A DNA stretch of 64,000 nt. Source: a virus (Duplodnaviria > Caudoviricetes). Location: positions 1,258 through 65,257 of IMG/VR virus record IMGVR_UViG_3300037067_001478; one strand, 5' to 3'. Every line of letters starts with the position of its first letter. Within the stretch, counting starts at the first letter, position 1. A program made the translations under genes and the position numbers. Under the pieces are notes generated by a model. That model saw only the letters and a program-made list of their open reading frames with translations, was not told where the DNA came from and did no database searches. Of this stretch, positions 3,556 to 63,084 are shown piece by piece.

Positions 3556-5721
3556 CTATGAGCATTTGCTCGCGCCACAGTTTAGGCATACTTGGCAACC
3601 TTCTTGTAAAGCATACTTGGGGTTGTCACAACACGCTTTCTTTGATTCTGGCAGGGTCTTATTAGATGCTGCTGGAATAAAAGTTGGAGGTGTGGTACAA
3701 TTCAGTTCATTGATACAATTCAAGCGATTGATCACGTTATTAATGCTCTTGCCAATTATATCTGAACAAGATTTTCCACCAGAGGTTTTACTGGTCATCG
3801 CTGTGTTACATTTCACACGGCTGAACTGACGCACGTAGTTCTCTGCTGGTGTGCCGTAATCAAGACCTGTGCTGATTGAACGCCCAAGACCTGCCATACT
3901 CGCAGCGCATCCACCATTACCAGCGCCTTCGACAAACACCTTTGTTGGTGCTTCACCATCATGACCGACGATAACATAGAATGAACCGCATCCAGAGCGC
4001 ACCTTATAGATGTATGCTGGAATGACAGCCTCATAGAACTCATCCTCAACCCAGTCGATAATACCATCACCATTAATGGGAGTGGTAATCATCTGCTGCT
4101 TTGGGGATTCCTGCTTCGTCAGACAAAGCACTTCAGTTTCTCTCGAACCCGAACGATAGATAGTCAGACCTTTACATCCAAGTTTCCATGCTTCGATGAT
4201 GACGGCTTTGATGTCGTCCTTCGTTGCATTGGGTTTGAGATTGATGGTTTTGCTGACTGCATTATCGGTGTGCTTCTGGAAAGCGGCTTGCATCTTGACA
4301 TGGGTTAATGGTGAGATGTCGAGCGCACTCTTGAACAACGCCTTAAACTCTTTGCAGAGTCCGACTACATCCTGTATCGTTCCCTTCTCCATGACGTGTG
4401 CTATCACTTCATCGTGAAGCACCTGATCTTCCATCGTTGCATCCCACAGAGCCGCTTCAAACAGTGGGTTGATTATGATGTGTTCTCCGAGAGTATCCTT
4501 TCTCTTATACGCCCATGAGAACACTGGCTCAATACCACTCGACACGTTGGCAAGGATGCTGATTGTTCCTGTCGGTGCAATAGTGGTCCTGGTTGCATTG
4601 CGGTATCCTTCCTTTGCATTGAGCGCTGGATAGAAGCCGCGAGAGATTGCAAGCACCATAGACTGTCTATCTGCAATCTGTGAGATGAAACCCATAACTG
4701 AATCTGCTATCTCAATTGCTTCCTTTGAGTCGTATGGAATCCCCATCTTTATGAGCATGTCGTGGAATCCCATAACACCAAGACCAATCTTACGAGTGGC
4801 ATTGGATGCTTCTTTGATTGCTTCCAGTGGATACTTATTAGCGGTTATGACATTATCCAAGAACACAACTGCATCACGAACCACTGGTTCAAGACGGTTG
4901 TAATCAATGATACCTGAAGCAGTCACGAAGTTTGAGAGATTGATACTTCCGAGGTTGCATGATTCATTCGGAAGAAGTGGCTGCTCACCACATGGATTAG
5001 TCGCAACCATATCTCCAAGTTGAGGAGTTGGGTTGAACTTATTAATTGTATCCTTAAAGAGAATACCTGGTTCTCCGTTATTATAGATACCATCGACGAT
5101 AGCATTAAGGATGTCAGAGTTTTTATTTCCTAATCCTCGCTTGTCGAGATCAAGAATCTCATTCATGAATATGTCATCAACCATGACGGAGATGTTGAAA
5201 TTCTTGATTGTTCCTTCGACTGTTTTACATTTAATGAAATTGAGAATCTCTGGATGAGTGTATTCAAGCACACCCATGTTTGCACCACGACGTTTGCCAC
5301 CTTGCTTGATAGCATCAGTCGCAGCATCGAACACTTGCATGAATGAAACTACACCAGACGCAACACCACTCGTAGATTTAACTACGCTTCCTGAAGGACG
5401 AAGTGCTGTGAATGAGAAGCCAGTTCCACCACCTGTCTTGTGGACAAGAGCAGCGTTCTTAACTGCTGTGAATATACTGTCGATGCTGTCATTCACTGGA
5501 AGGACGAAGCAAGCAGATAACTGCCCATTGTCTGTGCCAGCGTTCATCAGAGTTGGTGAGTTCGGTATGAAATCCTTGTTAATCATCAAATCATAGAACA
5601 TCTTCTGTTCTTTAGCGTCTGTTGCGATTGCGTTCATAACTCGCTCCACGACATCCTTCCAAGAGGATTCGTTGCCAATGCAATACCGTTCCTTCAATAG
5701 TTTATCTTCAAACTCTCCCAT
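3556..5721 (-). CDS. nrdJ: class II (adenosylcobalamin-dependent) ribonucleotide reductase
   Basis: PNSPTLMNAG, QLSACFV, ATNPCGEQ, ESCNLGSINL, TIAPTGT, SKTIN, GLTIYR; C-terminal TSCPD-like domain and Zn ribbon. Confidence 0.95.
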   Translation of the reverse strand: MGEFEDKLLKERYCIGNESSWKDVVERVMNAIATDAKEQKMFYDLMINKDFIPNSPTLMNAGTDNGQLSACFVLPVNDSIDSIFTAVKNAALVHKTGGGTGFSFTALRPSGSVVKSTSGVASGVVSFMQVFDAATDAIKQGGKRRGANMGVLEYTHPEILNFIKCKTVEGTIKNFNISVMVDDIFMNEILDLDKRGLGNKNSDILNAIVDGIYNNGEPGILFKDTINKFNPTPQLGDMVATNPCGEQPLLPNESCNLGSINLSNFVTASGIIDYNRLEPVVRDAVVFLDNVITANKYPLEAIKEASNATRKIGLGVMGFHDMLIKMGIPYDSKEAIEIADSVMGFISQIADRQSMVLAISRGFYPALNAKEGYRNATRTTIAPTGTISILANVSSGIEPVFSWAYKRKDTLGEHIIINPLFEAALWDATMEDQVLHDEVIAHVMEKGTIQDVVGLCKEFKALFKSALDISPLTHVKMQAAFQKHTDNAVSKTINLKPNATKDDIKAVIIEAWKLGCKGLTIYRSGSRETEVLCLTKQESPKQQMITTPINGDGIIDWVEDEFYEAVIPAYIYKVRSGCGSFYVIVGHDGEAPTKVFVEGAGNGGCAASMAGLGRSISTGLDYGTPAENYVRQFSRVKCNTAMTSKTSGGKSCSDIIGKSINNVINRLNCINELNCTTPPTFIPAASNKTLPESKKACCDNPKYALQEGCQVCLNCGASKCS
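3647..3676 (-). promoter_or_regulatory. 30-bp dyad TAATAA element (copy inside nrdJ)
   Basis: Minus strand TCCAGCAG CATC TAATAA GACC CTGCCAGA; 16/16 arm matches to consensus. Confidence 0.7.
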
Positions 5722-5838
5722 TAAAACAACTCCTCGAATAAATCTTTTTCTTCTTCTTCATTCTGTTCAATAACTTCCAAACCGAGGAAGTCATAGACGA
5801 ACACAAATAATGCGTCGAACATACTCCCTCTAAAAAAT

Positions 5839-6081
5839 TTAGAAGTCGATCCGACCTGACGATGGGAGTCCGAATGACACACTGTAATCAGTGTATTTGT
5901 TCATCCAGTTTACGAAGTGAGGAATGTTGTAAGGCTTCTTCATGGTGATACAATATGTCTTAAACTCTGACACGTATCCACGAATCTCACGGACGACTTC
6001 ATTCTTCATATCGCTGCACCTGCATTGGAAGTAAACATCGCTGTCATACATTCCATCATTTACTTTCAGTTTTATCATCAT
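5839..6081 (-). CDS. hypothetical protein
   Basis: ORF overlapping upstream stop. Confidence 0.5.
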   Translation of the reverse strand: MMIKLKVNDGMYDSDVYFQCRCSDMKNEVVREIRGYVSEFKTYCITMKKPYNIPHFVNWMNKYTDYSVSFGLPSSGRIDF

Positions 6082-6863: not shown

Positions 6864-7581
6864 TTCTCGGTGCTACGAGTAAGGTCATTGAGAGATACTC
6901 GTTTTCCATGCTTATCTGACATGGGAAATTAGTACCGATAGAGATTTTGATTTTCTCTGCTTTTGTTTTCTTGATAATCTTCGCAATCTTCAGAAGATAA
7001 TCAAAACTGAATCCAGACCGATGCTTCGACTTCTCTCCTTTCTCGACGCTTATCATGTCGAATTCACTTTTAGTTTTCTCACGCAATTCATTCAGGGAAT
7101 ACAGCGTGAACTTCTTGTTATCGTATTCCAAGAATACCTTAACTGGTAAGGTTCCCTCATCGGCTCCCATCTTCTCAATGGATTCAAGGAACTCGATGTA
7201 GTCAACAGCCTGTACCTCGATGATTGCAGGATACTCCAATGGTGGTGGGTCTTTCTGCGCTCGAAGAACTGCTTCGACGAGTGACATTATATCCCGTTCA
7301 ATCTTCCCGCCTTTGAAGTGGCAATGCTGTCCGAAGTCAATCGTTATGGTTTTGGTTTTCAAAGCATTGAGTGTGCTGTAAAATTTCTGCACATCTATCG
7401 CCATACGCAGAGTTTCAGGTGTTTCAACTTTAAACTCCGCAGCGATGAATCCGACGTTTGCTACATCGGAAGAATGGAATGAAAGTTTACCATTGCCGAT
7501 AACGAGTAATCCCTCGTCTGCTTGCTCTTTCAATGCGAAGAAAAACTGAAGTAATTTCTCTCGCTCAAACTCAATCTTCAT
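6850..7581 (-). CDS. pcn: PCNA-type sliding clamp
   Basis: 243 aa; DEGLL..G...DVANV, FSFDYL, terminal LLVAPRIE typical of PCNA. Confidence 0.85.
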   Translation of the reverse strand: MKIEFEREKLLQFFFALKEQADEGLLVIGNGKLSFHSSDVANVGFIAAEFKVETPETLRMAIDVQKFYSTLNALKTKTITIDFGQHCHFKGGKIERDIMSLVEAVLRAQKDPPPLEYPAIIEVQAVDYIEFLESIEKMGADEGTLPVKVFLEYDNKKFTLYSLNELREKTKSEFDMISVEKGEKSKHRSGFSFDYLLKIAKIIKKTKAEKIKISIGTNFPCQISMENEYLSMTLLVAPRIEDD

Positions 7582-8350
7582 ACATGACCACTTCCATCAG
7601 TTCTTCCCTCGTGATATACTTGGCTGCTCCTGCATATACTTTGTTAGCATCATCCATTCGCTGCTCGTAGATATGAGGGAAACCCGAATAGACTTCGATG
7701 TATCCACATTCAACTTCGAGGGCTTCAGCCATAATCTTTTGTAACGCATGGAGTCCATTGTTATTCGACAGTGACGCATCGAGCATGTCATTGCTTCGGA
7801 AGTGAGCGTTCATCCTCAACTTTCCATCGAGGATTGAGAACTGTATATCCTGAAGGCAGGGGCAATGTTCCATGAATATGTCAGTCATTGGAACCCAAGT
7901 GTGCGCCATACATCGACGAGTGATTGGTGATTCCTTAAGGTTCTCATAGATTTGTTTTATCTGATCGAATCCTTTGTTGTCACCATTACCGACTGTTGCG
8001 ATGTCATCTTCCCAATGATAGCCACCAAGTCCTTCTTCACCCGCGACTTTTACTTTCTTCGTCACAGGATAATCGAACAAACGGTTTGGGTATGTATAGG
8101 AGTGACCAGTATTCTCAACGGTGAGAAACTTATCACAGTATTCGATGATGGACTTGCTCTTGAATTTACTCAACGCATCGCAAGTCTTTGGTTCCATGAA
8201 GGGTTTATTAATGTGTACCACGAGTGGCTCGTATAGAGTCATGGCGTTGTTCCCATATTCGGTAGGAATCAATACACCATGAGTCTTAACCATTACGACG
8301 GCTTTAATCCATGCTTGTGCAATTGAATCTGCCGTCACCATATACGCCAT
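7571..8350 (-). CDS. thyA: archaeal-type thymidylate synthase (ThyA fold)
   Basis: YTYPNRL, TRRCMAHTW, catalytic PCLQDIQF, FRSNDM...N. Confidence 0.85.
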   Translation of the reverse strand: MAYMVTADSIAQAWIKAVVMVKTHGVLIPTEYGNNAMTLYEPLVVHINKPFMEPKTCDALSKFKSKSIIEYCDKFLTVENTGHSYTYPNRLFDYPVTKKVKVAGEEGLGGYHWEDDIATVGNGDNKGFDQIKQIYENLKESPITRRCMAHTWVPMTDIFMEHCPCLQDIQFSILDGKLRMNAHFRSNDMLDASLSNNNGLHALQKIMAEALEVECGYIEVYSGFPHIYEQRMDDANKVYAGAAKYITREELMEVVMYED

Positions 8351-9024: not shown

Positions 9025-9952
9025 CGTAAACACAATCTTTGGGTTGCTTATCTTCACGAATACGAATGAATCTAGGATGCCTAAACATTCCCGTTTCAAA
9101 TCGTTCCATGTATTCAACTTCAATCACAATTTTAGGTGCGACTTTACGAAGGATGTGTCCAAGTTCTCCTTTGGTAGATGGATATGTTGAGAACTCTGGT
9201 TCTTTCATCACAGCAGCATGTAATAACGCTCTGGTAGCATCATCGAATCCACTTGTCGCACCAACAACTTTGACATTCCCTTTGGTGTCGTATTGACCCA
9301 TAATAAGACTGCCAAATAGATTCTCGAATTTACCCTCGCCTTTCATTAGACCTATCACAAAGCAGTCTGCGGTATCCTGCTTCTTAACCTTCAGCCAATC
9401 AGCACTCCGCTTACCATCTTTGTAGATCGAGGACTTTTTCTTCAGGACAATGCCTTCACCACCAGCAGCGATAACAGTATCGAACAACTCATTGAATCGT
9501 TCTTTGTAGTTTTTCACTTGCTGGATATTCTTGAATGAATTAACATCGAAGAATGTGTATAGCAATTCATCACGTTTGTAATGAGGATGACTTCGCATGT
9601 TCACATCATTGTATTCGAGGATGTCGAACACCATGAATTTAACATCGTAGTCCTTGCGCGTTTCCACGGCCAGGCCGGTGAGAAACTCCTCTTTACCATC
9701 TGACTTGCGGAAGAATACTAACTCACCATCAAGGACAAACTTCCTGACATGAGTGAGTTTCAATTCATCAACGATGTCTGGATACTCCGAGGAGAGTTCA
9801 TTCTTCCCACTTCGAGTCTGGAGTTCTACTCCATTCTCATCTCGCTTTGCGATGATACGAGTGCCGTCATGCTTGCGCTGTGCGATGAAACTGCCTTCAT
9901 ATTTTTTGAGATCAGTATCTTTGCACGACTTAAGCAGCATTGGCTCAATCAT
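9014..9952 (-). CDS. lig: ATP-dependent DNA ligase (start reassigned to MIEPML)
   Basis: QRKHDG (motif I), LDGEL, FDIL, EGIVLK, WLKVK, RHPRFIRIREDK. Confidence 0.92.
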   Translation of the reverse strand: MIEPMLLKSCKDTDLKKYEGSFIAQRKHDGTRIIAKRDENGVELQTRSGKNELSSEYPDIVDELKLTHVRKFVLDGELVFFRKSDGKEEFLTGLAVETRKDYDVKFMVFDILEYNDVNMRSHPHYKRDELLYTFFDVNSFKNIQQVKNYKERFNELFDTVIAAGGEGIVLKKKSSIYKDGKRSADWLKVKKQDTADCFVIGLMKGEGKFENLFGSLIMGQYDTKGNVKVVGATSGFDDATRALLHAAVMKEPEFSTYPSTKGELGHILRKVAPKIVIEVEYMERFETGMFRHPRFIRIREDKQPKDCVYDEG

Positions 9953-13036: not shown

Positions 13037-13719
13037 AAAACTTTCACCATTTTCCTTTTTATCAGAGGGTATTCATTGAGTGCATCGAGAGTTTTACCAG
13101 TGTTATGCCTAAACATTTTGGTAAATTCCTCTCTGATTCTCTCATCGCTCACAGTATTGAATAAATTCTCAACGTAAAGCGGATGATAGAGAATTGTTTC
13201 TGTGTCAGGTGCTATTGTGAACCCAAGAGTGATGGAGAACCGAAGGATACGAAGCACCCTTAAGTAATCTTCAGCACAACGAGTTTCAACATCACCAACA
13301 GCACGAATAGTTCGATTCTTTATGTCTGCCAGACCATTATAAGGGTCTACGAGCGACTGATCATAAGGATTCATGGCAATAGCATTGATTGTTAGATCAC
13401 GCCTTGCCAAATCTTCCTCGATAGTGCCTACTTCAACGCTTTCAGGGTGTCGTCCATCTTTGTAGATGCCTTCTTTACGACAGAGAGTGTAGTCGATAGG
13501 AACTTTGTCAACGATGGCTCTGATGGTAAAGAATTTAGGAGTTTCGACTTTGATGTCTGCTCCTTTTTCGAGGACAAAGGCTCGCATTTCCTCGTAAGAG
13601 GATGCTTCAACAGCAATATCAACGTCACTGTGCTTTGAGATAGGTGTGCCGTGAACTCTGTTGATGAGCATATCTCGAACCATGCCACCGACGTAGTATT
13701 CGTTTACCATTTGAACCAC
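13015..13719 (-). CDS. cca: class II tRNA nucleotidyltransferase (CCA-adding-like)
   Basis: VGGMVRD, DVDI, RRDLTINA, DPYNGLADI, EDYLRVLRILRF, SDERIREE. Confidence 0.9.
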   Translation of the reverse strand: MVQMVNEYYVGGMVRDMLINRVHGTPISKHSDVDIAVEASSYEEMRAFVLEKGADIKVETPKFFTIRAIVDKVPIDYTLCRKEGIYKDGRHPESVEVGTIEEDLARRDLTINAIAMNPYDQSLVDPYNGLADIKNRTIRAVGDVETRCAEDYLRVLRILRFSITLGFTIAPDTETILYHPLYVENLFNTVSDERIREEFTKMFRHNTGKTLDALNEYPLIKRKMVKVLWLRPTF

Positions 13720-15742: not shown

Positions 15743-15997
15743 TCACGTTATCTTTACATCATCGAGTGCGTTATACTGTCGGAGTTGTGCATACCACTCC
15801 GCTTTTGCGTAATAGATAGAATTTTCTATCTTGATTTTACACAACTTGCCTTTGTCTACGAACTTCTGGCAATAGTATCTTGCTTCTCGATTGGTCAAGA
15901 CAAACTTCTTCGAGATGAAGGCGGGATCGTATATGACGTGTAAATCCCATTCATTCTCTATCCAGTTTGCTATCATCCCCTCTCGCTCATTAATCAT
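15743..15997 (-). CDS. winged-helix DNA-binding protein
   Basis: REARYYCQKFVDKGKL..IKIENSIYY recognition helix and wing pattern. Confidence 0.5.
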   Translation of the reverse strand: MINEREGMIANWIENEWDLHVIYDPAFISKKFVLTNREARYYCQKFVDKGKLCKIKIENSIYYAKAEWYAQLRQYNALDDVKIT

Positions 15998-49923: not shown

Positions 49924-49930
49924 AAAGGAA

Positions 49931-50104
49931 ATGAAAGTTGCCCTCGGTATAGTAGCAATTGACACTGGTCAACGTCCATCAACTCTTTTAACTTGGACTG
50001 AAGAAGAAGATTGGATGGCTCGTTTACTTTTTGATTTTGATGTAATAAATACATATCATACCGAAGAAAACAAAGAGCAAAAGAAAGCGATGAAAAGGAG
50101 GTGA
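49931..50104 (+). CDS. second tail chaperone segment (possible frameshift extension)
   Basis: Open frame overlapping the previous ORF from 49844; ATG at 49931. Confidence 0.45.
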   Translation: MKVALGIVAIDTGQRPSTLLTWTEEEDWMARLLFDFDVINTYHTEENKEQKKAMKRR

Positions 50105-50107
50105 ACT

Positions 50108-51382: not shown

Positions 51383-51386
51383 TTGA

Positions 51387-51758
51387 ATGTCAGTCGTATT
51401 AACTGATTACACAACGCCCTTTACTACAATAACTTTTTATTCTAATGGTATCACTCTCACAAAAAAGAGTAATAACAAAATCACGCCAGTTAAAGGTTCC
51501 AATCCTGTTATCGTAAGACTAGGACGAACTACCCAAGTCCAGATGACTGGTCGTGTATATTCAGCAGCAGACTTCAATATCCTCAATGCTTGGGGTGGAG
51601 AAACTGTTGTCGTCGTATCTAGTTCTTCATACCTTCAATTACCAAATGCGTCGAAGTGGCTTATTAAGAATCTTGAAATCAAAGAAGCCAAAGGAAACCT
51701 CGGTTACTACGATGTTAAGTTCGATCTTGAATACTACTTCGCTGGTGCGGTGATATAA
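51387..51758 (+). CDS. distal tail protein-like
   Basis: Follows TMP; beta-rich. Confidence 0.5.
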   Translation: MSVVLTDYTTPFTTITFYSNGITLTKKSNNKITPVKGSNPVIVRLGRTTQVQMTGRVYSAADFNILNAWGGETVVVVSSSSYLQLPNASKWLIKNLEIKEAKGNLGYYDVKFDLEYYFAGAVI

Positions 51759-53476: not shown

Positions 53477-53529
53477 TAAGCCACTTGCATAGTTGCTATG
53501 AACAATTATGCAGAAACATAATTACTTTT

Positions 53530-53559
53530 TCTAGCAGCATGTAATAAGCATCTGCTGGA
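53530..53559 (+). promoter_or_regulatory. 30-bp dyad TAATAA element
   Basis: TCTAGCAG CATG TAATAA GCAT CTGCTGGA; 40 nt to TTG 53588, GGTGA RBS in between. Confidence 0.75.
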
Positions 53560-53587
53560 ACATACAAATTGAAGTTTGGTGATCAAG

Positions 53588-53749
53588 TTGGCAGCAATAA
53601 CTCAACCAGCAAAAGTTGAAGTCACTTGTGATATTTATCACTATCGCAACGGTGTACTACTGGAGCATGTTAGACCATACTCCGAGGCATCGCTATTTGA
53701 CAAAGTCCTTTTCCATGTTGGACTGAAAAACTTAACACGGAGCGCATAA
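53588..53749 (+). CDS. 53-aa ORF, probable N-terminal part of the following tail protein; not in ORF track
   Basis: GGTGA RBS; VEVTCDIYHYRNGVLLEH. Confidence 0.5.
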   Translation: MAAITQPAKVEVTCDIYHYRNGVLLEHVRPYSEASLFDKVLFHVGLKNLTRSA

Positions 53750-53750
53750 T

Positions 53751-54104
53751 ATGTTATTGTTAAAAGGTATTCAGAATAGTGCGATTGCACTCGGAGCGAC
53801 ATACCTCGGAGTTGCGATTGGTACAGATGATACCGCCGAGAACATTAACCAGAACGCGCTGATAGCAGAGGCGCAACGTGTTGCTTCCACAAATACTATC
53901 GGCACGACAACTGTGGCAAATGATACCTCGGAGCATGAAGGTGATTTCACCATTTCAGCAGTATCTCTTGCAGTCAAAGAAGCAGGAGTTTGCACTACCG
54001 CAGATGTCGGTGGAGATTTCTGTGCAAGACAGATATTTGCTGTAATGAACTTTGTACAGAACGATAACGTCATTATTGTGTTTAAGTTTAAGACGAGTGG
54101 ATAA
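53751..54104 (+). CDS. virion tail protein (C-terminal part)
   Basis: AIGTDDTA, VKEAGV, GGDFCARQIF pattern of small viral tail/baseplate proteins. Confidence 0.65.
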   Translation: MLLLKGIQNSAIALGATYLGVAIGTDDTAENINQNALIAEAQRVASTNTIGTTTVANDTSEHEGDFTISAVSLAVKEAGVCTTADVGGDFCARQIFAVMNFVQNDNVIIVFKFKTSG

Positions 54105-54106
54105 AC

Positions 54107-54412
54107 ATGGCAGAACTTGGTGATGCCGTAGTCATCGTACCGACTTCAGTGAACGCTGCTGCAAGCCTCACCGTAAGACCGGCGAGTGGTGATGAATGGA
54201 TCATTCATAATATATTCTCCGAAGATGGATACCCCATTGAGGTGTATATTACGGATGGCACAAACACCATCAAGATAGATGCCAACGCATCTGGTGGTCT
54301 TTTAGGTTATGCTTTCCACTTAACTTACGCAGTATATATGACGATTAAGAATACTGATGCGAGCGCCCGTTATATATCATACAACGGAATCGTTTCCAAG
54401 GTCACAGCATAA
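54107..54412 (+). CDS. small beta-sandwich virion protein
   Basis: Synteny, composition. Confidence 0.5.
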   Translation: MAELGDAVVIVPTSVNAAASLTVRPASGDEWIIHNIFSEDGYPIEVYITDGTNTIKIDANASGGLLGYAFHLTYAVYMTIKNTDASARYISYNGIVSKVTA

Positions 54413-54431
54413 TTTTTCAGGAGATATTGAC

Positions 54432-55031
54432 ATGTCTTTAGATCACATTTTAAGAGCATTAAAACTTGACAGTGGCGCGACTATCACGAAGATCGACGCA
54501 ACTGGAACCCTCGCAGCGAACTCGGACTCGAATCTGGCTACACAGAAGGCAGTCAAGACTTACGTGGATGCACATGCAACTGCGGGTGTTGATACCGATG
54601 GTACTCTGGCGGCTGACAGTGATGTACTCGTTCCGTCGCAGAAAGCAGTAAACACATTTGTCGAAACATCTGTGGCTGCCGCTACTGGTGCGAAAGGAGT
54701 AATTGCATTCCCTCTGTCGTTTGAAACCAACGAGCAGATGCAGACGCTTATCTACTTCCCGATGAAAGTTACTGTCAACAAGATTCGTTCAACTGTGACG
54801 AAGGCTCTTGCAGGAACCAGCAATGGTACGATTACTTGTGGTAACGTCGGTGGAGCATCTGCAAACGGTGTAGTTACTGTTGCCCTTTCTGCGGCACTTG
54901 AAGATGACGACACGGCATCACCCACGACCAACAATGTGGTCCTGGCTGACGGCTATTACTACCTGACAACCGCAAAGGCTGACGCAGGTGGTAAGGTTCT
55001 CGTTACTCTCGAATATACAGTAACAGCATAA
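54432..55031 (+). CDS. tail fibre-like protein with two D.TL..NSD...(T/S)QKAV repeats
   Basis: IDATGTLAANSDSNLATQKAVKTYVD / VDTDGTLAADSDVLVPSQKAVNTFVE; ATG at 54432. Confidence 0.65.
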   Translation: MSLDHILRALKLDSGATITKIDATGTLAANSDSNLATQKAVKTYVDAHATAGVDTDGTLAADSDVLVPSQKAVNTFVETSVAAATGAKGVIAFPLSFETNEQMQTLIYFPMKVTVNKIRSTVTKALAGTSNGTITCGNVGGASANGVVTVALSAALEDDDTASPTTNNVVLADGYYYLTTAKADAGGKVLVTLEYTVTA

Positions 55032-55062
55032 GACTAATTCATTTATTTTTTGAGGTGAAAAC

Positions 55063-56145
55063 ATGCCAGCAAAAATCGAAGGAAGAAGTACAAAGGATAT
55101 TGGGATAGACTGTATCGGCAGGCCCACTTACGATAATCTAGATAAATTTCTAGATGCTACCAATAGTGCTGGTTTCTTCGAGGGTGGCACTATTACTGAT
55201 TCAGGTAGTGGGCAAATTGATATTGCTTCGGCGAAAGGTGTAATAAGGACAACCAACTCTGGTGTCGGTAATTTAGTCGCATTTGATATAGATGCTACTA
55301 CAAATGTTTCACTCACTGATAACTCAATGAATTATATCTATGTTGATTACAACAGTGGCTCACCAATTTGGGCAGTAACAACAACTTATACAGATATTAA
55401 CTTACAATCTAAAATTATAGTTGGTAGGGTTTATCGTCTTGGAAATGTTTTATTCATTGGTAACTTTGGACAAGACATTCAAGATTCTGTATTGAGGGAT
55501 CTTTATAGACTTCAAACATTAAGACGACTTGAATGGGCTAGTGGAGCAATGCTCTCATTCACAACAGCAACTCGTCAACCAACTGTTACCGAGGGAATGT
55601 TCTTTGCTAACTATGAAAAGATTATAACAGCAGCCTTTAATGCAAGTGGCGCTGATAGATTCGTTGCTTGGTATAGAAATGGTTCTGGTGGATGGTTATA
55701 TGTTACCGCACTCCAAGATATAGATAATACTTATTGGGATGATGGAACTGGAACTCTCAATGATTTAACTACTGGTGATTACGGGGTTCATTGGTTCTTT
55801 ATTTTATCAGATGGTTCTATTCATTCTGTATATGGACAAGCCAACTATGGAACTCTCGCAAACGCAAGAGCAGCAACATTCCCGACTACAATACCTCCTG
55901 CACTTCAAGGACTTGGTATCTTTATCGGAAGAATAATTATAAAGAAATCAGCAACAGTATGCACAGAAGCATCGTCTGCATTTGATTACACATTTTCTGG
56001 AACTACTACTGTAAACCACAATGAACTTGGTGGACTTCAGGGTGGAACCGTTGCTGAATATTATCATGCAACTTCAGCACAGCAAGCATGGCTCGCTATT
56101 GAAGCAGCAAAGAACAGACAAGTATTAATATATCTGGGGTTATAA
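55063..56145 (+). CDS. tail/baseplate protein
   Basis: HNELGGLQGG..EYYH motif typical of viral tail proteins. Confidence 0.65.
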   Translation: MPAKIEGRSTKDIGIDCIGRPTYDNLDKFLDATNSAGFFEGGTITDSGSGQIDIASAKGVIRTTNSGVGNLVAFDIDATTNVSLTDNSMNYIYVDYNSGSPIWAVTTTYTDINLQSKIIVGRVYRLGNVLFIGNFGQDIQDSVLRDLYRLQTLRRLEWASGAMLSFTTATRQPTVTEGMFFANYEKIITAAFNASGADRFVAWYRNGSGGWLYVTALQDIDNTYWDDGTGTLNDLTTGDYGVHWFFILSDGSIHSVYGQANYGTLANARAATFPTTIPPALQGLGIFIGRIIIKKSATVCTEASSAFDYTFSGTTTVNHNELGGLQGGTVAEYYHATSAQQAWLAIEAAKNRQVLIYLGL

Positions 56146-56147
56146 TC

Positions 56148-56474
56148 ATGACAGCAATCACAGTTAAAAATCTTGCTAATGGGCAACTCGCTGGTTCCAT
56201 TGGAGATTTATATACAGCGCCAGCAGTAACCACGACGATTATTAAATCAATCACTCTGGTTAATACTCACTCGGCAGAACTCGGTGTGAATCTCTATGTT
56301 CTCAAAGCAGGTGGAACTGCGAGGAAGATTATTCCAAGTAACATGACATTAGGTATTGGATACCTTTTAGTCTATGACGATGTATTGACGCTCGGTGCGG
56401 GAGATAAAATTCAAGGTGACGCAGGAACAGCCGCAAAAGTGGACTACGTTATTTCAGGTGTTGAGGAAGCATGA
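56148..56474 (+). CDS. small tail adaptor protein
   Basis: LYTAP..TTTIIKSI.LVN, L..GDKI beta-sandwich. Confidence 0.55.
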   Translation: MTAITVKNLANGQLAGSIGDLYTAPAVTTTIIKSITLVNTHSAELGVNLYVLKAGGTARKIIPSNMTLGIGYLLVYDDVLTLGAGDKIQGDAGTAAKVDYVISGVEEA

Positions 56475-57358
56475 GAGTATATGATGCAAGCGGGAAACTT
56501 CTGCAAATCAATGTTCCCAACAAACTTGCAGAATATACCGTCATTACTTATCTTGGTACGACTGATAGTACCATCTCTACATCCAAAGCAGTTAAGGATG
56601 TTACTGACACTCTTGCTACTAAAGCCGAGATCACTGACCTGGCCCCACTCGCTGACCCAACATTTACGGGAGTACCAGCAGCACCAACGGCTGCACCTGG
56701 AACAAACACGACACAGATTGCCACGACTGCACACGTCAAAGCAGCAGATGATTTAAAAGCAAATCTCGCTTCTCCTGCATTAACAGGAACACCAACTGCT
56801 CCGACAGCAGCACCGGGTACAAATACAACGCAGATTGCGACAACTGCACATGTTAAAGCAGCAAATGATTTAAAGGCTAATCTTGCCTCGCCTGGTTTAA
56901 CTGGCGTTCCAACTGCTCCGACTGCGGCTGTGGGAACTAACACCACACAACTTGCGACGACAGCATTTGTTAAAGCAGAGATAGCAGCAGGTTCAGCAGT
57001 TCCGTCGGGTCTTATTGCGATGTGGTATTCAAGTATCGCATCGATTCCATCTGGATGGGTTCTTTGTAATGGTTCGAGTTCCACTCCTGATCTTCGTGAT
57101 AAGTTCGTTGTTGGTGCTGGTTCAACATACGCCGTCGCCGATGAAGGTGGAGAAGCCACACATACATTGACCACAGCAGAAATGCCAGCGCATACTCATG
57201 GTGTTCCAAACGTCTTTGGTACTGGTACAGCGTTTGGTATTTTAGTTGGTGGAAGTCATATCGACCAGACACCAATAACTTCAGGTAGTGCTGGTTCAGG
57301 AAGCGCACATGAGAACCGACCACCATATTATGCAATCGTATTTATGATGAAAACATAG
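56471..57358 (+). CDS. short tail fibre with repeats and collar domain
   Basis: Three SP.LTG.PTAPT..GTNTTQ.ATTA.V repeats; collar PSGW.LCNG..TPDLRDKF; HENRPPYY. Confidence 0.85.
   Translation: MRVYDASGKLLQINVPNKLAEYTVITYLGTTDSTISTSKAVKDVTDTLATKAEITDLAPLADPTFTGVPAAPTAAPGTNTTQIATTAHVKAADDLKANLASPALTGTPTAPTAAPGTNTTQIATTAHVKAANDLKANLASPGLTGVPTAPTAAVGTNTTQLATTAFVKAEIAAGSAVPSGLIAMWYSSIASIPSGWVLCNGSSSTPDLRDKFVVGAGSTYAVADEGGEATHTLTTAEMPAHTHGVPNVFGTGTAFGILVGGSHIDQTPITSGSAGSGSAHENRPPYYAIVFMMKT
56640..56975 (+). repeat. three tandem 117-bp (39-aa) fibre repeats
   Basis: GATTTAAA(A/G)GC..ATCT at 56750 and 56867. Confidence 0.85.
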
Positions 57359-57365
57359 GTGACTT

Positions 57366-57572
57366 ATGCAAGCGAAGATTCAATCGGCAGCCAAACCTTT
57401 CACATTCACTTGTGCTAGGTGTGGCAAGCCCTTATTAAACCCTGTGGAAGAAACAAGTGTGTATGTCTTTGAAGTAGAAGATGTGCATGAGATTGACCCG
57501 AAGTTAATATGTGTAGATTGCGTAAGACCAACAGACCGTTATATATGGGGAACTAAAGAGGTGCTAGCATGA
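57366..57572 (+). CDS. small Zn-finger protein
   Basis: CARCG ... CVDC. Confidence 0.55.
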   Translation: MQAKIQSAAKPFTFTCARCGKPLLNPVEETSVYVFEVEDVHEIDPKLICVDCVRPTDRYIWGTKEVLA

Positions 57573-59479
57573 AAGTTTACAACGCAAGTGGTGTCCTATT
57601 AACGAGTGATCCTGATGCAGCACCACTCGATAGTCCAGACTTCACTGGTATTCCAACGGCAGATACAGCAGCAGATGGAACGGATACCTGTCAACTCGCA
57701 ACGACTGAATTTGTCCAGAACGCATTAGTGGATACGGCCTTAACTGGGAATCCAACTGCGCCCACTCCTGCTGATAATGACAATGACACATCAATTGCTA
57801 CGTCAGCATTTGTTCAGGGTTCAAAGAATCTTCCTCACCCGACTTTAATACCATTAACAGTTGCATCTAAAGGTGGAATATACAACGGTGATTTTGAAAC
57901 TGCACCGCCATTTACCGCCGCGCAAACTTCAAACGGTTATATTGTTGGTACTGCCGCCGGAAGTGCAACAGATGATAGATATGGATGGTATGCCTATGCA
58001 CCATCAGCAGCAATTTCAGTTCAGTTTGATACAGGTGTCACACACAATGGTCTTGTTTCATTGAAAGTATCTATGACAAATACAACTGGTCGTTGTGTAG
58101 TAGATCAGCCATATCAACGTCATTGGATGAAACTACAACCTTCCACTAAATATCGTTTATCAGTATGGGTAAAAACAAATAATGTTGCTACCGATGCAAT
58201 TTATTGTACTTTATTACAATATACATCTACATTTGGTGCAATAGGTTTTATTTACACACCAAAACTTTCTGGTACAAATGATTGGACATTATTATCTGTC
58301 GAGTTTACTTCTGACGCAACAGCATATTGCGGTCGTGTTCAGATGTATAACTACGTTGCTGGTAATGTAAGTGACGCATGGTTTGATGATTTAATTATCG
58401 AAGAAGTAGTTGAGGATACTGGTTACACAGGAACTTCACCAACACCATTACTAACGACAATCACTGGAAAATCAGATTACGTCGATATATATGATAATTA
58501 TAAATTGGGTGGAGATACAGATGCTACTTACTCCACTACTTATTGGCGTTCACAGCAATTCATACCGATACGACCAAAGATGGCGACTGCATCAGTGGTT
58601 TTGAAGAAAGTGGGTTCACCAACTGGTAACTTAACTTTTACAGTCGAAATCGATAATGGTTCAAATCTTCCAAATGGTGTTCCGATTGCTGCTACGACCC
58701 TGGATGTTTCGACATTAACAACTTCATACCTCGAATATACAATAAATCTTCCATGTAATTTGACTGTTGGTGCGAAATATTTTGTTACATTTAAAAGACC
58801 ATCAGCAGATGGTGTAACAAACTATGTCGTTATAAGATATAAAACTACTGGTGCGCCATTCACTGATTATACAGCAAACGGTGCTGGTTCGTGGGTTGCA
58901 AATAATGGTATTCAATATGATTTGAAAACCAATTTTGTAAAGCATACTGAAAACCCAACAATCATTTGTAATGGAGAGAAACTTTCTTTACAATCATCAG
59001 AGGAAGGAGTATTCAATAATGCAGTAATTGATCTCGATAAAGGAAAATATCTTTGGCAAAATGTTCCAACAACTGGTATTCCTCTTGAAGCAATCAATGT
59101 GTATGAAGCAAGTCAAGGAGGTCGTACAGATTCAGTATTGGCTGTAAATGGTTGGTATATGACCATGCTTGCCAGTGATACAAATGAATATCTAGCAACT
59201 AACGATGCAGTAATAAGATACTTAACTTTCAAAGTAGATACTTTACTGCCTATAAAACATTTGAAATTTAAATTTTTATTGTATTCAAATAGTGCTTCGG
59301 CAGAAAAACTAATACAAATATCAACTGATAACACCACTTGGACAACGATGAAAACTCTTGTTGGCGTTGGTCTTGGACGAACATTTTTTACTTGTGAGTC
59401 AGATGTAGCAAATGGTTATAGTGTTTTCTTCATCCGTTTCTATAAGCAGCAGTCGCCGATTATCTTGCTGGTGGTATAA
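57569..59479 (+). CDS. receptor-binding tail fibre, N-terminal part
   Basis: Fibre repeats; CBM4/9-like NGDFE...KYRLSVWVKT...WFDD domain; frame break near 59444. Confidence 0.8.
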   Translation: MKVYNASGVLLTSDPDAAPLDSPDFTGIPTADTAADGTDTCQLATTEFVQNALVDTALTGNPTAPTPADNDNDTSIATSAFVQGSKNLPHPTLIPLTVASKGGIYNGDFETAPPFTAAQTSNGYIVGTAAGSATDDRYGWYAYAPSAAISVQFDTGVTHNGLVSLKVSMTNTTGRCVVDQPYQRHWMKLQPSTKYRLSVWVKTNNVATDAIYCTLLQYTSTFGAIGFIYTPKLSGTNDWTLLSVEFTSDATAYCGRVQMYNYVAGNVSDAWFDDLIIEEVVEDTGYTGTSPTPLLTTITGKSDYVDIYDNYKLGGDTDATYSTTYWRSQQFIPIRPKMATASVVLKKVGSPTGNLTFTVEIDNGSNLPNGVPIAATTLDVSTLTTSYLEYTINLPCNLTVGAKYFVTFKRPSADGVTNYVVIRYKTTGAPFTDYTANGAGSWVANNGIQYDLKTNFVKHTENPTIICNGEKLSLQSSEEGVFNNAVIDLDKGKYLWQNVPTTGIPLEAINVYEASQGGRTDSVLAVNGWYMTMLASDTNEYLATNDAVIRYLTFKVDTLLPIKHLKFKFLLYSNSASAEKLIQISTDNTTWTTMKTLVGVGLGRTFFTCESDVANGYSVFFIRFYKQQSPIILLVV

Positions 59480-60432
59480 ATACAATTGAAGCAGATTTAG
59501 ATATTTCATCTGTTCCAATACCATTAGTTTATCCTCTTGGGATTAACCAGTTCACAGAAGAAATAAATACTCAAAATGCAGTTACTCGTATTTATTATAG
59601 AAAAAATAAATTCTGTAATAAAAATGAAATTGTAGTTCCTCATTTGGAATTTACAAATTCAACGGGAGTCTTTATTAAATCTCTCGCAATACCAATTGAT
59701 AATTCTTACGAGGCTGATCCATCAATTAATATTATTATTGCTGAAACTACAAATGGACAACAGGTGGGAACTGGTAGTGCGGATTCAACAACTGGATATA
59801 TCCTAAATGATGGAGAGTATATGACACTCTCATCTGCTGTTTCACAATTGAAAATAACATATCGTGTTGGTACTGGAACAACTTCATTTGGTAACATCAC
59901 TAAAAATTTAATTTTGTTATCGAATAACAGTCATAAATTGTCAGCAACCAAAGATGGTTCATCTCTTTGTACTTATAATTTCTGGTATAAAGTTCAATCA
60001 CTTATACGAACCATCACTGATTTAACCCAGAAAGTAAATTATTTATCAACTAAATGCAAAGAAGGAGTATGGCAACCATGGTATCCAACTGTGGCTTGGC
60101 AGACAGCAACACCAACTATTACTTCAGAAAGTTATCGTTGGACTAAAATAGGCAACACAGTGTTTGTCAATATAGGAGTTGTTTGTTCTGACGGTAACGG
60201 TTGTACTGGTGTAATAATACCATTACCAGTAAATGTTAGTGGTTCTTTGACATCTTCTTACTTTGCAGAAGTAGTCGGTAGGCAACGTGTTGACGCAACA
60301 CAGAACGTAACATACCCATACATCGGTGTTAATGTATCATATATCAGATGTTACCCAACAGAAGGATTTGCTGTGATGACCGATACGAAAACCAGTTTAT
60401 TGATTTTCCAAATGTTCTATGAGGTGGACTAA
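59446..60432 (+). CDS. receptor-binding tail fibre, C-terminal part (out of frame)
   Basis: Frame open from 59446 with no obvious RBS/ATG; ends in EG.W.P...KIGNTV...LP...YE fibre-tip domain. Confidence 0.65.
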   Translation, partial: AAVADYLAGGINTIEADLDISSVPIPLVYPLGINQFTEEINTQNAVTRIYYRKNKFCNKNEIVVPHLEFTNSTGVFIKSLAIPIDNSYEADPSINIIIAETTNGQQVGTGSADSTTGYILNDGEYMTLSSAVSQLKITYRVGTGTTSFGNITKNLILLSNNSHKLSATKDGSSLCTYNFWYKVQSLIRTITDLTQKVNYLSTKCKEGVWQPWYPTVAWQTATPTITSESYRWTKIGNTVFVNIGVVCSDGNGCTGVIIPLPVNVSGSLTSSYFAEVVGRQRVDATQNVTYPYIGVNVSYIRCYPTEGFAVMTDTKTSLLIFQMFYEVD

Positions 60433-60753
60433 ATGCCTGAAACCATTGAAGTTGGCGACCTTGCCAAACCGATTGCAGTCAGCGCGCTCACGAAAGATGA
60501 GTTTATCGCTATGACTGAAGCCGACAAGATTAAAGTTCTCGTCGCAGAAAAGGAAGAAGTCCTCGCAAAACAAGATGAGCAGAAAATGAAATCTGCTTTT
60601 TATATAGCGCGAGATGTTGAACTCAAAGCCTTTGATGAACAAGCAAAGATTCGTCTTGGAGATTTCCAAACTCAACTCTCCAATGAACGCACCATCATAG
60701 AAAAGAAATGGATGGATGCTGAAGCACTTGGCACATTCGTTATTCCACAGTAG
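60433..60753 (+). CDS. coiled-coil protein (possible fibre chaperone)
   Basis: Directly after fibre gene. Confidence 0.5.
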   Translation: MPETIEVGDLAKPIAVSALTKDEFIAMTEADKIKVLVAEKEEVLAKQDEQKMKSAFYIARDVELKAFDEQAKIRLGDFQTQLSNERTIIEKKWMDAEALGTFVIPQ

Positions 60754-60775
60754 GGTGTAATAACACTCTGCTAGA
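60746..60775 (+). promoter_or_regulatory. 30-bp dyad TAATAA element
   Basis: CACAGTAG GGTG TAATAA CACT CTGCTAGA; 36 nt to ATG 60800, GAGGA RBS in between. Confidence 0.7.
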
Positions 60776-61734: not shown

Positions 61735-62217
61735 ATGAAAGTCGGTGATTTAGTCGAGGATGAATCACTGTATGAGGAACCAGTAGCCATCCCGAAAACA
61801 AATGTGATGGTAATAAATCCCGACGATCCATACGACACGCCCGATGAACGCGCAGAATGTAACGACTTCATCTTCCAGAAATTTTTCTGTTGGTCTGGTG
61901 TTGATGGAACATTCTCAACCTGGCGCGAGCGTCATGTATTCCTTCGTGGATTCCGTAATGGATTTGGAACCACGTTATTCTCGAAGTTTGAATGTACCCC
62001 TGCAATGTGGAACGACGAGGCTCAATACTATGAGGCTGGTCAAGAGATGGGATACGTTATAAAGATTGGCTTCCAGATAAGCGCTGTATTCATCGCAACT
62101 CAACTCGGTGTCCTCACGGCACTAACGGGTGGAGTTGATGTGACCACCGCAGTCGAACCGAGTAAAGAACTTGTTTCAAAAATCGTAGATGCAATACTCA
62201 CTCGCATTGGTCTTTGA
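61735..62217 (+). CDS. hypothetical protein with C-terminal hydrophobic segment
   Basis: ORF in operon. Confidence 0.55.
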   Translation: MKVGDLVEDESLYEEPVAIPKTNVMVINPDDPYDTPDERAECNDFIFQKFFCWSGVDGTFSTWRERHVFLRGFRNGFGTTLFSKFECTPAMWNDEAQYYEAGQEMGYVIKIGFQISAVFIATQLGVLTALTGGVDVTTAVEPSKELVSKIVDAILTRIGL

Positions 62218-62226
62218 GGTGTTACC

Positions 62227-63084
62227 GTGGCTGTCGATGGTAAAGGTAGAGTTATCATTGGAAGTAAGATCGACGAATTCGGTCTTATGATTTTTCAAGG
62301 TAACTTCAATGAGTTCGGTAACTTTGCCAAAGCGCAGAGATTGTTCCATGTTATATTGACAGAGATATTGACAATAACGCATGTGAAGCATACAACCTTC
62401 AAACGATACGTCGATGAGCCAATACAGATTACAGTTTCCAGTGTGCGAGCGCTTTATAAGAGCCTTACAGAAACACTTACAATCACCACATCCAAATCAC
62501 TACAAGTCACCCGCACTATTGCTACCAGCATCTTATTAAGCATTGCTAGACACACAGAATTGAATCGTACGTACCAACAGATTGTGCATATCACTCCAAA
62601 CTATTACAAGCGATTCTACATAGTAATGTCATTAGAGATACTGCATCTCACTCAAACTGTTTCACCAATAAAGGCGATCATCACACGACAGGTTCCTGTT
62701 ATTATTTCTACGGTTAGAACTCTGTCCTTCAAACGCAATATATCTGAACCAGTAACAATATCAATATCGAGATATGTCAAGCGTCACTTCGATACAACGA
62801 TACATATAATAGACGCTAAACGCCATACAACTGTTCGCCGTATAATGAATACTACCGTAACAATAACTGCCATTTACGAAGCAGCAATACCATACATCAT
62901 GAGATACTTCTCGACTAAAGTTCGAGAGGTTGACAAGGCTGTAAATATATATCAGAATATCAAATCATCCTTCGTCAATCGAATAAGACAATCAGAAGTC
63001 CGACGTGTGAAAACACAGTCGCAGATTTATCCAGTTCATAAAAATTCCAACGTCGCGTTGGATGATGGTCGTGATGTGAAATGA
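62227..63084 (+). CDS. Thr/Ile-rich protein with ~18-aa degenerate repeats
   Basis: Recurrent (F/L)xRxLxExLTIT units. Confidence 0.6.
   Translation: MAVDGKGRVIIGSKIDEFGLMIFQGNFNEFGNFAKAQRLFHVILTEILTITHVKHTTFKRYVDEPIQITVSSVRALYKSLTETLTITTSKSLQVTRTIATSILLSIARHTELNRTYQQIVHITPNYYKRFYIVMSLEILHLTQTVSPIKAIITRQVPVIISTVRTLSFKRNISEPVTISISRYVKRHFDTTIHIIDAKRHTTVRRIMNTTVTITAIYEAAIPYIMRYFSTKVREVDKAVNIYQNIKSSFVNRIRQSEVRRVKTQSQIYPVHKNSNVALDDGRDVK
62521..62550 (-). promoter_or_regulatory. degenerate dyad TAATAA element, antisense inside a gene
   Basis: Minus strand TCTAGCAA TGCT TAATAA GATG CTGGTAGC; 13/16 arm matches. Confidence 0.3.

Follow-up and report, generated by a model that had tools for sequence, protein, structure and literature searches.

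The locus raises the question of what a short symmetric element, scattered along the genome of an uncultivated tailed virus that probably infects archaea, does at the places where it stands. The element is a 30-bp mirror-symmetric box with an AT-rich core, TCYRGYAG-N4-TAATAA-N4-CTRCYRGA, and it was sought in the window, the whole stretch of 64,000 nucleotides that was analysed. An earlier note on this DNA had listed nine copies. A pattern scan recovered all nine at the coordinates and on the strands given below. The strong copies at 3647, 17709, 35259, 47655, 53530 and 60746 have 0, 0, 2, 1, 0 and 2 mismatches to the consensus, respectively, and the weak copies at 38090, 52171 and 62521 have three each; TAATAA and the 14-nt spacer are identical in all nine. 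None of 100 dinucleotide-shuffled controls contained any match, and the analytic chance expectation is about 0.01 per window at up to three mismatches and 0.12 at up to four. The pattern has no copy in the other contigs (1.63 Mb) of the 1.69-Mb assembly; a reversed-pattern control also gave none. Nine is not the full tally, as three additional copies with four mismatches occur at 9209(+), 13325(+) and 40582(+) (contig coordinates minus 1257). The copies are as follows.

38090-38119, minus strand: dyad, intergenic; 21 nt between the end of TAATAA and the ATG of a 58-aa gene.
35259-35288, minus strand: dyad; 22 nt between the end of TAATAA and the ATG of a small ORF for a membrane peptide, with an amidoligase block downstream of that ORF.
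17709-17738, minus strand: dyad between the RtcB and P-loop kinase genes; 38 nt from TAATAA to ATG.
3647-3676, minus strand: dyad within the 3' linker of the class II RNR gene.
40582-40611, plus strand: dyad with four mismatches, spanning the start codon of a small-terminase-like gene (V/M-A-S-N-K...).
47655-47684, plus strand: dyad between the major-capsid block and the following head/tail genes.
53530-53559, plus strand: dyad at the head of the tail/baseplate block; 40 nt from TAATAA to the start codon, GGTGAT present.
60746-60775, plus strand: dyad upstream of the terminal module; TAATAA and ATG are 36 nt apart, with a GAGGA site.
52171-52200, plus strand: weak dyad within a 572-aa gene.
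62521-62550, minus strand: weak dyad, antisense in a BppU-like gene of LxRxLTE-type repeats; position not conserved, doubtful.
9209-9238, plus strand: dyad with four mismatches, antisense in the DNA ligase gene; doubtful.
13325-13354, plus strand: dyad with four mismatches and centre TTATAA, antisense in the CCA-enzyme gene; doubtful.

The placement of the copies is not random. Eight of the original nine follow the local direction of transcription, as had been claimed (binomial P=0.02), and at least four of the nine fall where the window lacks a sense ORF of 30 or more amino acids, which is 4.5% of its length (P ~4e-4). Six copies (38090, 35259, 17709, 47655, 53530 and 60746) are both intergenic and co-oriented with transcription, at 20-22, 36-40 or about 50 nt upstream of a start codon. 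The distances of 21-22 and 36-40 nt proposed earlier hold for most of them; the copy at 47655 departs from this, with about 50 nt, and not 21, between TAATAA and the conserved start. An invariant 19-nt block (47619-47639) is located upstream of this copy. The 17709 copy has a T5 tract directly on its 5' side (17739-17743, plus strand) and a GGTGAT ribosome-binding site before the ATG. A T tract also lies directly 5' of the 53530 copy, and in all relatives a T5-T6 tract is found in front of these two copies; such tracts are an archaeal termination signal. The flanks of the dyad are asymmetric, with the T tract upstream only and an ACA...TTG stretch downstream only.

At least five related viruses from metagenomes, some of them with early proteins only about 50% identical, retain the element at matching positions (G001/G003, G002, L160/L161, L158 and L164; more distantly L165/L169/L172 and L168). 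The proposal had been made to depend on enrichment over shuffled sequence and on conservation in relatives, and it came through on both. The 38090 copy is nearly invariant in G001, L160/L161 and L164, the last with the centre TTATAA. The 53530 copy is kept in G001, G002 and L172, the copy at 35259 has its positional counterpart at L165:4434 (centre TAATTA, 20 nt to the ATG), and G002:24136 is the probable counterpart of 60746. In the distant relatives the flanks diverge and the arms change, and the centre stays TAAT(A/T)A, often TAATTA. The motif recurs in intergenic DNA at the heads of gene blocks, with both sequence and position conserved among relatives. Loose pattern scans of IMG/VR gave mostly chance matches, with L011 and L179 as the only lineage members. 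In the isolate phage collection nothing matched the contig at the DNA level, its portal, capsid and 424-aa tail protein had no protein match, and the terminase had only distant ones. For 46001-56000 the runs listed with matching DNA were the probable source run, from groundwater, and a landfill run with a small share; none was an RNA run.

Two copies show that constraint acts on the DNA itself even within coding sequence. At 3647 the sequence GCAGCATCTAATAAGA is invariant in three viruses with zero synonymous change, although the adjoining conserved codons vary, and the 40582 copy is kept in L158, L164 and L169/L172. The latter overlaps a start codon and the former is separated from the next gene by about 150 nt, which means that neither can be a simple promoter of the adjacent gene. 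Four other copies, at 52171, 62521, 9209 and 13325, are doubtful. The first two, listed earlier among the weaker copies, look like coding coincidences; 52171 is probably one because its orthologues carry synonymous differences that break the motif. The 9209 copy is also found in the relative L179, within coding sequence.

It is important to consider the internal structure of the box. The N4 positions, previously thought free to vary, are constrained to C-A-Y-N on the left and G-R-N-T on the right. At position +31, 24 of 30 copies have an A. Two 12-bp arms always flank a 6-bp spacer. The copies at 3647(-) and 17709(+) have the same arms with an inverted centre, which indicates that centre and arms are separate modules. 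In L168 and L172 the left and right arms are altered together. Within a site, the arms covary more than column composition would give (covariation score 0.315 versus 0.225, reached in 0 of 500 shuffles), a score to be read with the caution that kinship among sequences can produce covariation without function. These are inverted half-sites at a fixed spacing whose symmetry is itself maintained, as in a palindromic operator. Isolated half-sites number 21 against 10 expected; about half of them lie within dyads, and enrichment beyond the dyads is not clear.

Covariation above the shuffled level would also suit an RNA or single-stranded DNA hairpin acting as a terminator, a processing site, a 5' stabiliser or a hairpin promoter, and good one-strand folds can be drawn at 53530 (-13.8 kcal/mol) and 60746 (-13.0 kcal/mol). 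However, pairing is present in only 64% of cells, with mismatches in the middle of the stem. The stable strand switches between copies and between orthologues (mean z -1.6, both strands), no U tract follows, the T tract being upstream instead, and no Rfam family matches. We regard a hairpin as highly improbable. The preference for a DNA site expressed in the earlier note is upheld, and since the arms form no consistent hairpin, the best fit is a double-stranded site bound by a dimeric protein.

The same 12-6-12 geometry with an asymmetric spacer resembles the core sites of tyrosine recombinases (dif, lox), in which reading the dyad would serve exchange at cassette boundaries, or else packaging or replication. 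The spacer sets orientation independently of the arms, and some copies stand at borders of conserved and variable DNA: 60746 follows non-conserved fibre genes, and RtcB is present or absent beside 17709. Another copy lies in the small-terminase-like gene, and pac sites are often located within the small-terminase gene. A tyrosine recombinase (PF00589) was not found in the contig or in G001-G003, however, and the positions of the sites and the local gene order are conserved across relatives. About ten scattered copies are a poor match for a single pac site, and the fixed distance to the start codon, together with the conserved ribosome-binding site and start context, points to transcription. 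Such a role in DNA transactions appears very unlikely.

If the sites act in transcription, they should be compared with the canonical promoters of the same virus. The motif TTTAAATA occurs nine times against 2.9 expected, eight times on the gene strand with CGAAA-like tracts upstream. The boxes of this class are the following.

39305-39312, minus strand: canonical TTTAAATA box with CGAAAGG directly upstream; 21 nt to the ATG.
Starts at 35967, 34776, 30711, 28683, 26267 and 16570, all minus strand: other boxes of the TTTAAATA class.

At 39305 the distance from box to ATG is 21 nt here, 21 in G001 and 22 in G002; the intervening sequence is variable, and the distance is conserved without a conserved ribosome-binding site. 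The spacing of 21-22 nt is shared by the dyads at 38090 and 35259 and the boxes at 39305 and 35967, and the counterparts of the dyads have 20-22 nt. Dyads at 36-40 nt from the start codon carry a ribosome-binding site. The two types differ in what precedes the box: a purine- or A-rich BRE (CGAAAGG, GAAAACA and similar) in the TTTAAATA class, and GCAGCATS at the dyads. The clean division into early and late promoters suggested before does not hold, since the dyads at 38090 and 35259 stand in the leftward arm among TTTAAATA promoters and a canonical-looking box is present at the first rightward gene.

The meaning of these boxes depends on the domain of the host. The contig was binned with a bacterial genome in which sigma-70 is present and TBP and TFB are absent. 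This would agree with a bacteriophage of the binned bacterium or another one, in which the dyad, wrapped around a -10-like TAATAA, is the operator for a repressor or an activator; transcripts would begin about 7 nt downstream and carry the ribosome-binding sites seen before each gene. Strong sites of this kind precede nearly all genes, and similar sequences occur even between TAATAA and ATG at 35259 and 38090, where bacterial -10 geometry fits too. The CCA enzyme is of the bacterial class II type and the ligase is LigD-like. Against a bacterial host, the contig is a tetranucleotide outlier in its bin (r=0.59 versus 0.93-0.99 for most contigs), and no spacer or short match links it or its relatives to the other contigs of the bin. 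The 260 other genomes of the bin's phylum yielded no terminase homologue and four other contigs of the bin carry distant ones, which suggests mis-binning. The dyads have no conserved -35 or TG motif where one would be expected and no extended -10, and sigma-70 consensus sites are not enriched at 44-64 kb (41 versus 48.7). The conserved box-to-ATG distance at 39305 likewise speaks against this reading.

The gene content itself leans toward archaea. ThyA is of the methanogen type (1.5e-45 versus 6e-13 for bacterial models), a Hef/Xpf nuclease and an MJ0330-type terminase are present, and the most complete matches of PolB are in haloarchaeal tailed viruses. A scan of roughly 70 proteins found no endolysin, sigma factor or RNAP. 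In the search for a host, the terminase alignment and the RNR gave no match against one genome per species, and no rRNA was found in the bin. Gene content and the promoters with BRE plus TTTAAATA point to an archaeal host as the better reading despite the bacterial bin, and a bacteriophage operator seems unlikely to us. Two further candidates were set aside. An ORF with a double zinc ribbon of TFIIB type (35984-36496) was a possible factor directed at RNAP; the relatives lack it, and its Pfam model also matches bacteria. A Bacteroidota-type -7 box (TAnnTTTG) matches three downstream flanks and was rejected because ribosome-binding sites are used throughout.

With an archaeal host, the symmetry could belong to the promoter alone. 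The arms would then be non-canonical BREs for the host TFB or a TFB paralogue, and one TATA box between a BRE and an inverted BRE would fire both ways without any further factor, giving sense mRNA and antisense counter-transcripts. BRE-TATA-BRE promoters of Pyrococcus furiosus are bidirectional, with start sites 49 bp apart (PMC6640164). The HF2 class II repeats retain about half of their activity when reversed, and long counter-transcripts occur (PMC8707807). Several relatives have the fully palindromic centre TAATTA. However, the arms (TCYRGYAGCATS) are rich in G/C and do not resemble the A-rich BRE before the virus's own TTTAAATA boxes, the flanks are asymmetric, and the orientation of TAATAA tracks gene direction in all but one of the nine copies. 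This makes a factor-independent symmetric promoter improbable.

With moderate confidence we propose that the dyad is a regulated promoter specific to this virus lineage, consisting of a weak TATA-like core within a symmetric operator for a dimer. The best reading is a second, regulated class of promoter beside the canonical TTTAAATA class. The centre TAAT(A/T)A would be a weak TATA box read by host transcription machinery of archaeal type, and the two 12-bp arms would be half-sites for a dimeric DNA-binding protein, probably encoded by the virus. The half-site centres are 22 bp apart, about two helical turns, which places both on one face of the DNA. The left arm would occupy the place of the A-rich BRE in the canonical promoters and the right arm would span roughly -19 to -12, so that a bound dimer would control the access of TBP/TFB. 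Transcription may start about 23-24 nt past the centre, in the conserved stretch ACAKWASWWWTTG. Repression or gating is slightly favoured, since the archaeal operators known to overlap BRE/TATA are repressive; alternatively, the protein might activate an intrinsically weak promoter. Two genes had been suggested as binders on account of their winged helices, and both do fold so.

25701-26228, minus strand: winged-helix gene with its own TTTAAATA box; residues 1-77 MarR-like; conserved across the lineage; candidate binder only.
15743-15997, minus strand: winged-helix gene of 84 aa with Z-alpha, SelB and ArsR-like matches; candidate binder only.

A bolder version, in which the viral dimer clamps the arms and takes over the role of BRE-TFB recognition as a virus-private archaeal initiation pathway, is distinctly doubtful.

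The earlier note did not recognise such a temporal switch from described archaeal viruses, but comparable virus-specific repeat promoters have been described for archaeal tailed viruses. The intergenic repeats of HF2 and other haloferacalesviruses, class I of 58 bp and class II of 29 bp, have been shown by experiment to be promoters and are conserved throughout a genus (Russ, Pfeiffer and Dyall-Smith 2021, PMC8707807). Both systems are short, virus-specific sequences recurring in the intergenic spaces of archaeal tailed viruses, where a TATA-like AT motif with conserved flanking blocks heads long transcription units, and in both sequence and position are conserved in related viruses. The promoter activity shown by experiment for HF2 is inferred for the dyad. 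No sequence similarity was seen or is expected; the HF2 repeats are not TATA-centred dyads, whereas here two inverted half-sites are symmetric around the AT core and two copies lie in coding DNA.

The operators of SSV1 F55, SvtR and AvtR overlap BRE/TATA or the start site, and those of SvtR and AvtR are imperfect inverted repeats (PMC5569661). The dyad would likewise be an imperfect inverted repeat for a small dimeric regulator that competes with TBP/TFB, or modulates their binding, at viral promoters. Those regulators act at one or a few promoters, at sites beside or across core elements, whereas one type of site, symmetric around the TATA core, is found here at 6-8 transcription-unit starts genome-wide. 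Mirror symmetry about one TATA box is shared with the promoters of Pyrococcus furiosus (PMC6640164). The arms there are ordinary A-rich BREs and the symmetry is thought to be a by-product, while the dyad arms are G/C-rich, virus-specific and conserved. Many dispersed copies of a short motif, oriented with transcription at gene or module borders, are also known from stoperators and PeSLs. The stoperators of cluster A mycobacteriophages are asymmetric, with repressor sites of 13 bp in temperate bacteriophages; the promoter-early stem-loops (PeSLs) of T4-type phages are bacterial sigma-70 promoters with stem-loops. Neither an integrase nor a lysogeny module was found in the present virus.

To our knowledge, very little is known about the timing of expression in archaeal tailed viruses: studies have covered only a handful of viral regulators and a single family of repeat promoters (HF2). 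This lineage provides a compact system defined by sequence, in which canonical and symmetric-operator promoter classes are found in one genome and arm and centre variants occur naturally in the relatives. Given a host or an in vitro system, it would allow a direct test of whether a dimer and TBP/TFB cooperate or compete on the same 30 bp. If the virus-private pathway were true, it would be a counterpart of phage sigma factors and of sigma appropriation by T4, separating regulated genes from host-type promoters. The dyad motif can also be used in practice to annotate transcription units and to recognise members of this group of uncultivated viruses.

All nine copies of the 30-bp dyad TCYRGYAG-N4-TAATAA-N4-CTRCYRGA reported in the earlier note were recovered by a pattern search of the window, with the same coordinates and strands. 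The arms carry 0-2 mismatches in the six strong copies and three in the three weak copies. The dyad is enriched over shuffled sequence, with no match in 100 dinucleotide shuffles; the analytic chance expectation per window is approximately 0.01 at three or fewer mismatches and 0.12 at four or fewer. A search at four mismatches gave three more copies, 9209, 13325 and 40582. The window comprises bases 1258-65257 of contig C3 (65,257 bp), part of a 1.69-Mb assembly of 175 contigs, and no dyad was found on any other contig of this assembly. Gene strands are minus up to about 39.5 kb and plus from about 40.2 kb, and eight of the nine copies are oriented with local transcription, as had been observed. 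Sense ORFs of 30 aa or more leave 4.5% of the window uncovered, and at least four copies fall in that fraction. The copies, named by start position, are:

38090 (-), weak; intergenic, promoter-like
35259 (-), strong; intergenic, promoter-like
17709 (-), strong; intergenic, promoter-like
47655 (+), strong; intergenic, promoter-like
53530 (+), strong; intergenic, promoter-like
60746 (+), strong; intergenic, promoter-like
3647 (-), strong; in the RNR linker, apparently constrained as DNA
40582 (+), four-mismatch search; in coding DNA, apparently constrained as DNA
52171 (+), weak; doubtful, motif destroyed by synonymous-site variation
62521 (-), weak; doubtful, antisense in a repeat-rich protein, position not conserved
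9209 (+), four-mismatch search; doubtful, antisense and intragenic
13325 (+), four-mismatch search; doubtful, antisense and intragenic

A terminase search of IMG/VR gave three contigs, G001 and G003 (one virus) and G002, with 80-86% protein identity and approximately 71% DNA identity to the window, together with several metagenome fragments. The dyad is present at matching positions in each of these relatives, and the reversed-pattern control gave zero matches. Homologues of ORF 25701-26228 led to more distant relatives, L165/L169/L172 and L168, whose early proteins share 45-55% identity with those of the window. The L165/L169/L172 relative retains the dyad at corresponding places, and L168 has one copy. 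The dyads of these distant relatives have different arms and often a palindromic centre, TAATTA; in L168 both arms are altered together (TCCAAAACATGC / ACATGTATTGGA).

Conserved islands stand out within diverged spacers when the 53530/17709 cassette and the 47655 region are aligned with their counterparts in relatives. The order in both is a tandem stop, a T5-T6 tract, the dyad, a ribosome-binding site (GGTGAT or related) and the start codon. The T5-T6 tract is directly 5' of the dyad at 53530/17709 and just past the stop codon at 47655. Only the 53530/17709 cassette has, between dyad and ribosome-binding site, CTGGAACA plus an ACA...TTG stretch. Just upstream of the 47655 dyad, a 19-nt block, TTTTGTATCATATGAGAAT (47619-47639), contains the palindrome TCATATGA. 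It is invariant or nearly so across five viruses, exceeding the dyad itself in conservation, and may combine a terminator with a second binding site. Counterparts of the fibre and carbohydrate-binding genes (55063-60432, +) are lacking in G001 and G002, in contrast to those of the flanking genes. The unmatched genes appear to form a swapped host-recognition module whose downstream border is the 60746 dyad.

In the RNR linker, the codons GCA GCA TCT AAT AAG show no synonymous change in three viruses, in contrast to the nearby conserved CCDNPKY codons, whose third positions vary at four of seven. The 40582 dyad spans the start codon of a small-terminase-like gene in the window and in all relatives. 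The motif has only one stop-free sense frame, and therefore all coding copies read ...S/L-N-K-x-L-x-E. The RNR C-terminal linker (3590-3676, -) and the small-terminase-like N-terminus (40582-40660, +) have a common peptide, A-S-N-K-x-L-x-E-(P/S)-K-K-x-C..C. The embedded dyad forces the first part of it, and the likeness extends a few codons further. The BppU-like protein (62227-63084, +) consists of LxRxLTE-type repeats. In G001 and G002 a dyad-like sequence in sense orientation is found some 220 nt inside the gene; the equivalent site in the window is degraded, with an antisense copy located 75 nt further downstream.

The consensus of thirty instances is T-TCTRGCAG-CAYN-TAATAA-GRNT-CTGCYAGA-A, in which the arm positions are biased because the instances were pattern-selected; positions 0, 9-12, 19-22 and 31 are free of this bias. 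Copies 3647 (read on the minus strand) and 17709 (read on the plus strand) have near-identical arms with an inverted centre, which makes the centre a module distinct from the arms. A bidirectional promoter independent of any factor was among the alternatives weighed, as was an RNA hairpin. Pairing of the arms is poor: of 12 positions, 6-8 usually form Watson-Crick pairs and mismatches fall in mid-stem. The better-folding strand switches between copies and between orthologues (mean z = -1.6 on either strand). In a set of 27 copies, either intergenic or constrained and taken from both the window and the relatives, just 64% of cells are paired, yet covariation is above all 500 shuffles and above slid controls. 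The symmetry thus appears to be under selection, though below the level of a structural RNA, and no Rfam family matches the dyad. Selected symmetry with poor pairing is the pattern that a DNA site for a dimeric protein predicts, in agreement with the earlier preference for such a site over a hairpin. A recombination or packaging site was also considered; against recombination, no tyrosine recombinase was found in C3 or G001-G003.

The ordinary promoter class has the canonical box TTTAAATA, which occurs nine times against 2.9 expected; eight of these boxes lie in the leftward arm, on the strand of its genes. Tracts of the CGAAAGG or GAAAACA type precede the boxes. The distance to ATG is 21-22 nt, or 28-38 nt with a ribosome-binding site located where a transcript starting about 23 nt past the box would begin. 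At box 39305 the 21-22 nt spacing is held in three viruses despite changed intervening sequence, and a run resembling a ribosome-binding site is lost in G002. We take this arrangement to be archaeal box A/BRE geometry. The clean early/late partition proposed previously is not borne out, since dyads and TTTAAATA boxes are intermixed along the leftward arm and a conserved ATATAAAT box precedes the first rightward gene.

This ATATAAAT box is part of an upstream ATATTAACCAATC-ATATAAAT block (40150-40235, +) conserved in the window's virus, G002 and L169. The product of the first rightward gene, a 123-aa protein with a Cys cluster at the N-terminus and a coiled coil at the C-terminus, is a further candidate regulator; the stop codon of this gene falls within the 40582 dyad. 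The TTTAAATA promoters at 26250-26274 and 30695-30718 (-) have a common downstream block, GTWTTGCGAACA, which resembles the dyad right arm and flank (CTGCTGGAACA). Both classes of promoter may have a proximal element in common.

C3 is a tailed-virus genome. Its genes include:

Metabolism and replication: class II RNR, family B DNA polymerase, ATP-dependent ligase, ThyA, RtcB, RNA ligase, CCA enzyme
Modification: two C5-methyltransferases, amidoligase
Virion and packaging: terminase, portal, capsid, tail

G003 links the late module to the RNR end, indicating that the genome is circularly permuted and C3 near complete. The assembly containing C3 is bacterial, with sigma-70 and without TBP and TFIIB; in the family to which it belongs, genomes span about 0.9-1.6 Mb. 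C3 departs strongly from it in tetranucleotide composition (r=0.59, where most other large contigs give 0.93-0.99), has no short matches to the rest of it, and its terminase has no homologues in 260 other genomes of the phylum. Distant terminase homologues (23-27%) on four other small contigs, C60, C96, C110 and C114, suggest that several viral contigs were co-binned.

The operator of a bacteriophage was weighed as well, and the gene content of C3 leans to archaea. ThyA fits a methanogen-type model (1.5e-45, against 6e-13 for bacterial models), a Hef/Xpf nuclease is encoded, the terminase falls in clusters with the MJ0330 N-terminal domain, and PolB aligns most fully to haloarchaeal tailed viruses. 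A scan of approximately 70 proteins gave no endolysin, sigma factor or RNAP, and the structural proteins have no match among 50,697 phage records. With the TTTAAATA promoters as the most telling feature, the host is quite probably an archaeon. The repair and nucleotide toolkit is of mixed domain origin: ThyA (7571-8350, -) is methanogen-type and the ERCC4 nuclease (913-1539, -) Hef/Xpf-type, the CCA enzyme is bacterial-type class II and the ligase LigD-like. Pfam finds two zinc ribbons of the TFIIB type in a 170-aa ORF (35984-36496, -), at 40.5 bits; this ORF is absent from all relatives sampled, and the Pfam model also matches bacterial genomes.

In alignment with the canonical box, the dyad centre corresponds to its 3' portion (TCTAATAA versus TTTAAATA), and both are at equal distance from leaderless-type ATGs. 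The left arm would occupy the place of the A-rich BRE and the right arm would cover about -19 to -12. The best reading of the sequence is that the dyad may be a second promoter class, intrinsically weak and gated by a dimer on both arms. Repression is the known effect of archaeal operators that overlap BRE/TATA (PMC5569661), and for this reason we lean slightly to it, with activation as the alternative. Predicted folds agree with the earlier assignment of two ORFs as winged helices. The model of 25701-26228 (pLDDT 85.5) matches MarR-type proteins over residues 1-77 (Z up to 7.4), and that of 15743-15997 (pLDDT 89) has Z-alpha and ArsR-like matches (TM up to 0.77). Both products are candidate dyad binders.

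In halovirus HF2, an archaeal tailed virus, intergenic repeats have been proven by experiment to act as promoters and are conserved across the genus (PMC8707807), and Pyrococcus is known to have promoters with a symmetric BRE-TATA-BRE layout (PMC6640164). The dyad can thus be regarded as a variation on described promoter types rather than a new category, uniting both ideas and adding virus-specific G/C-rich arms.
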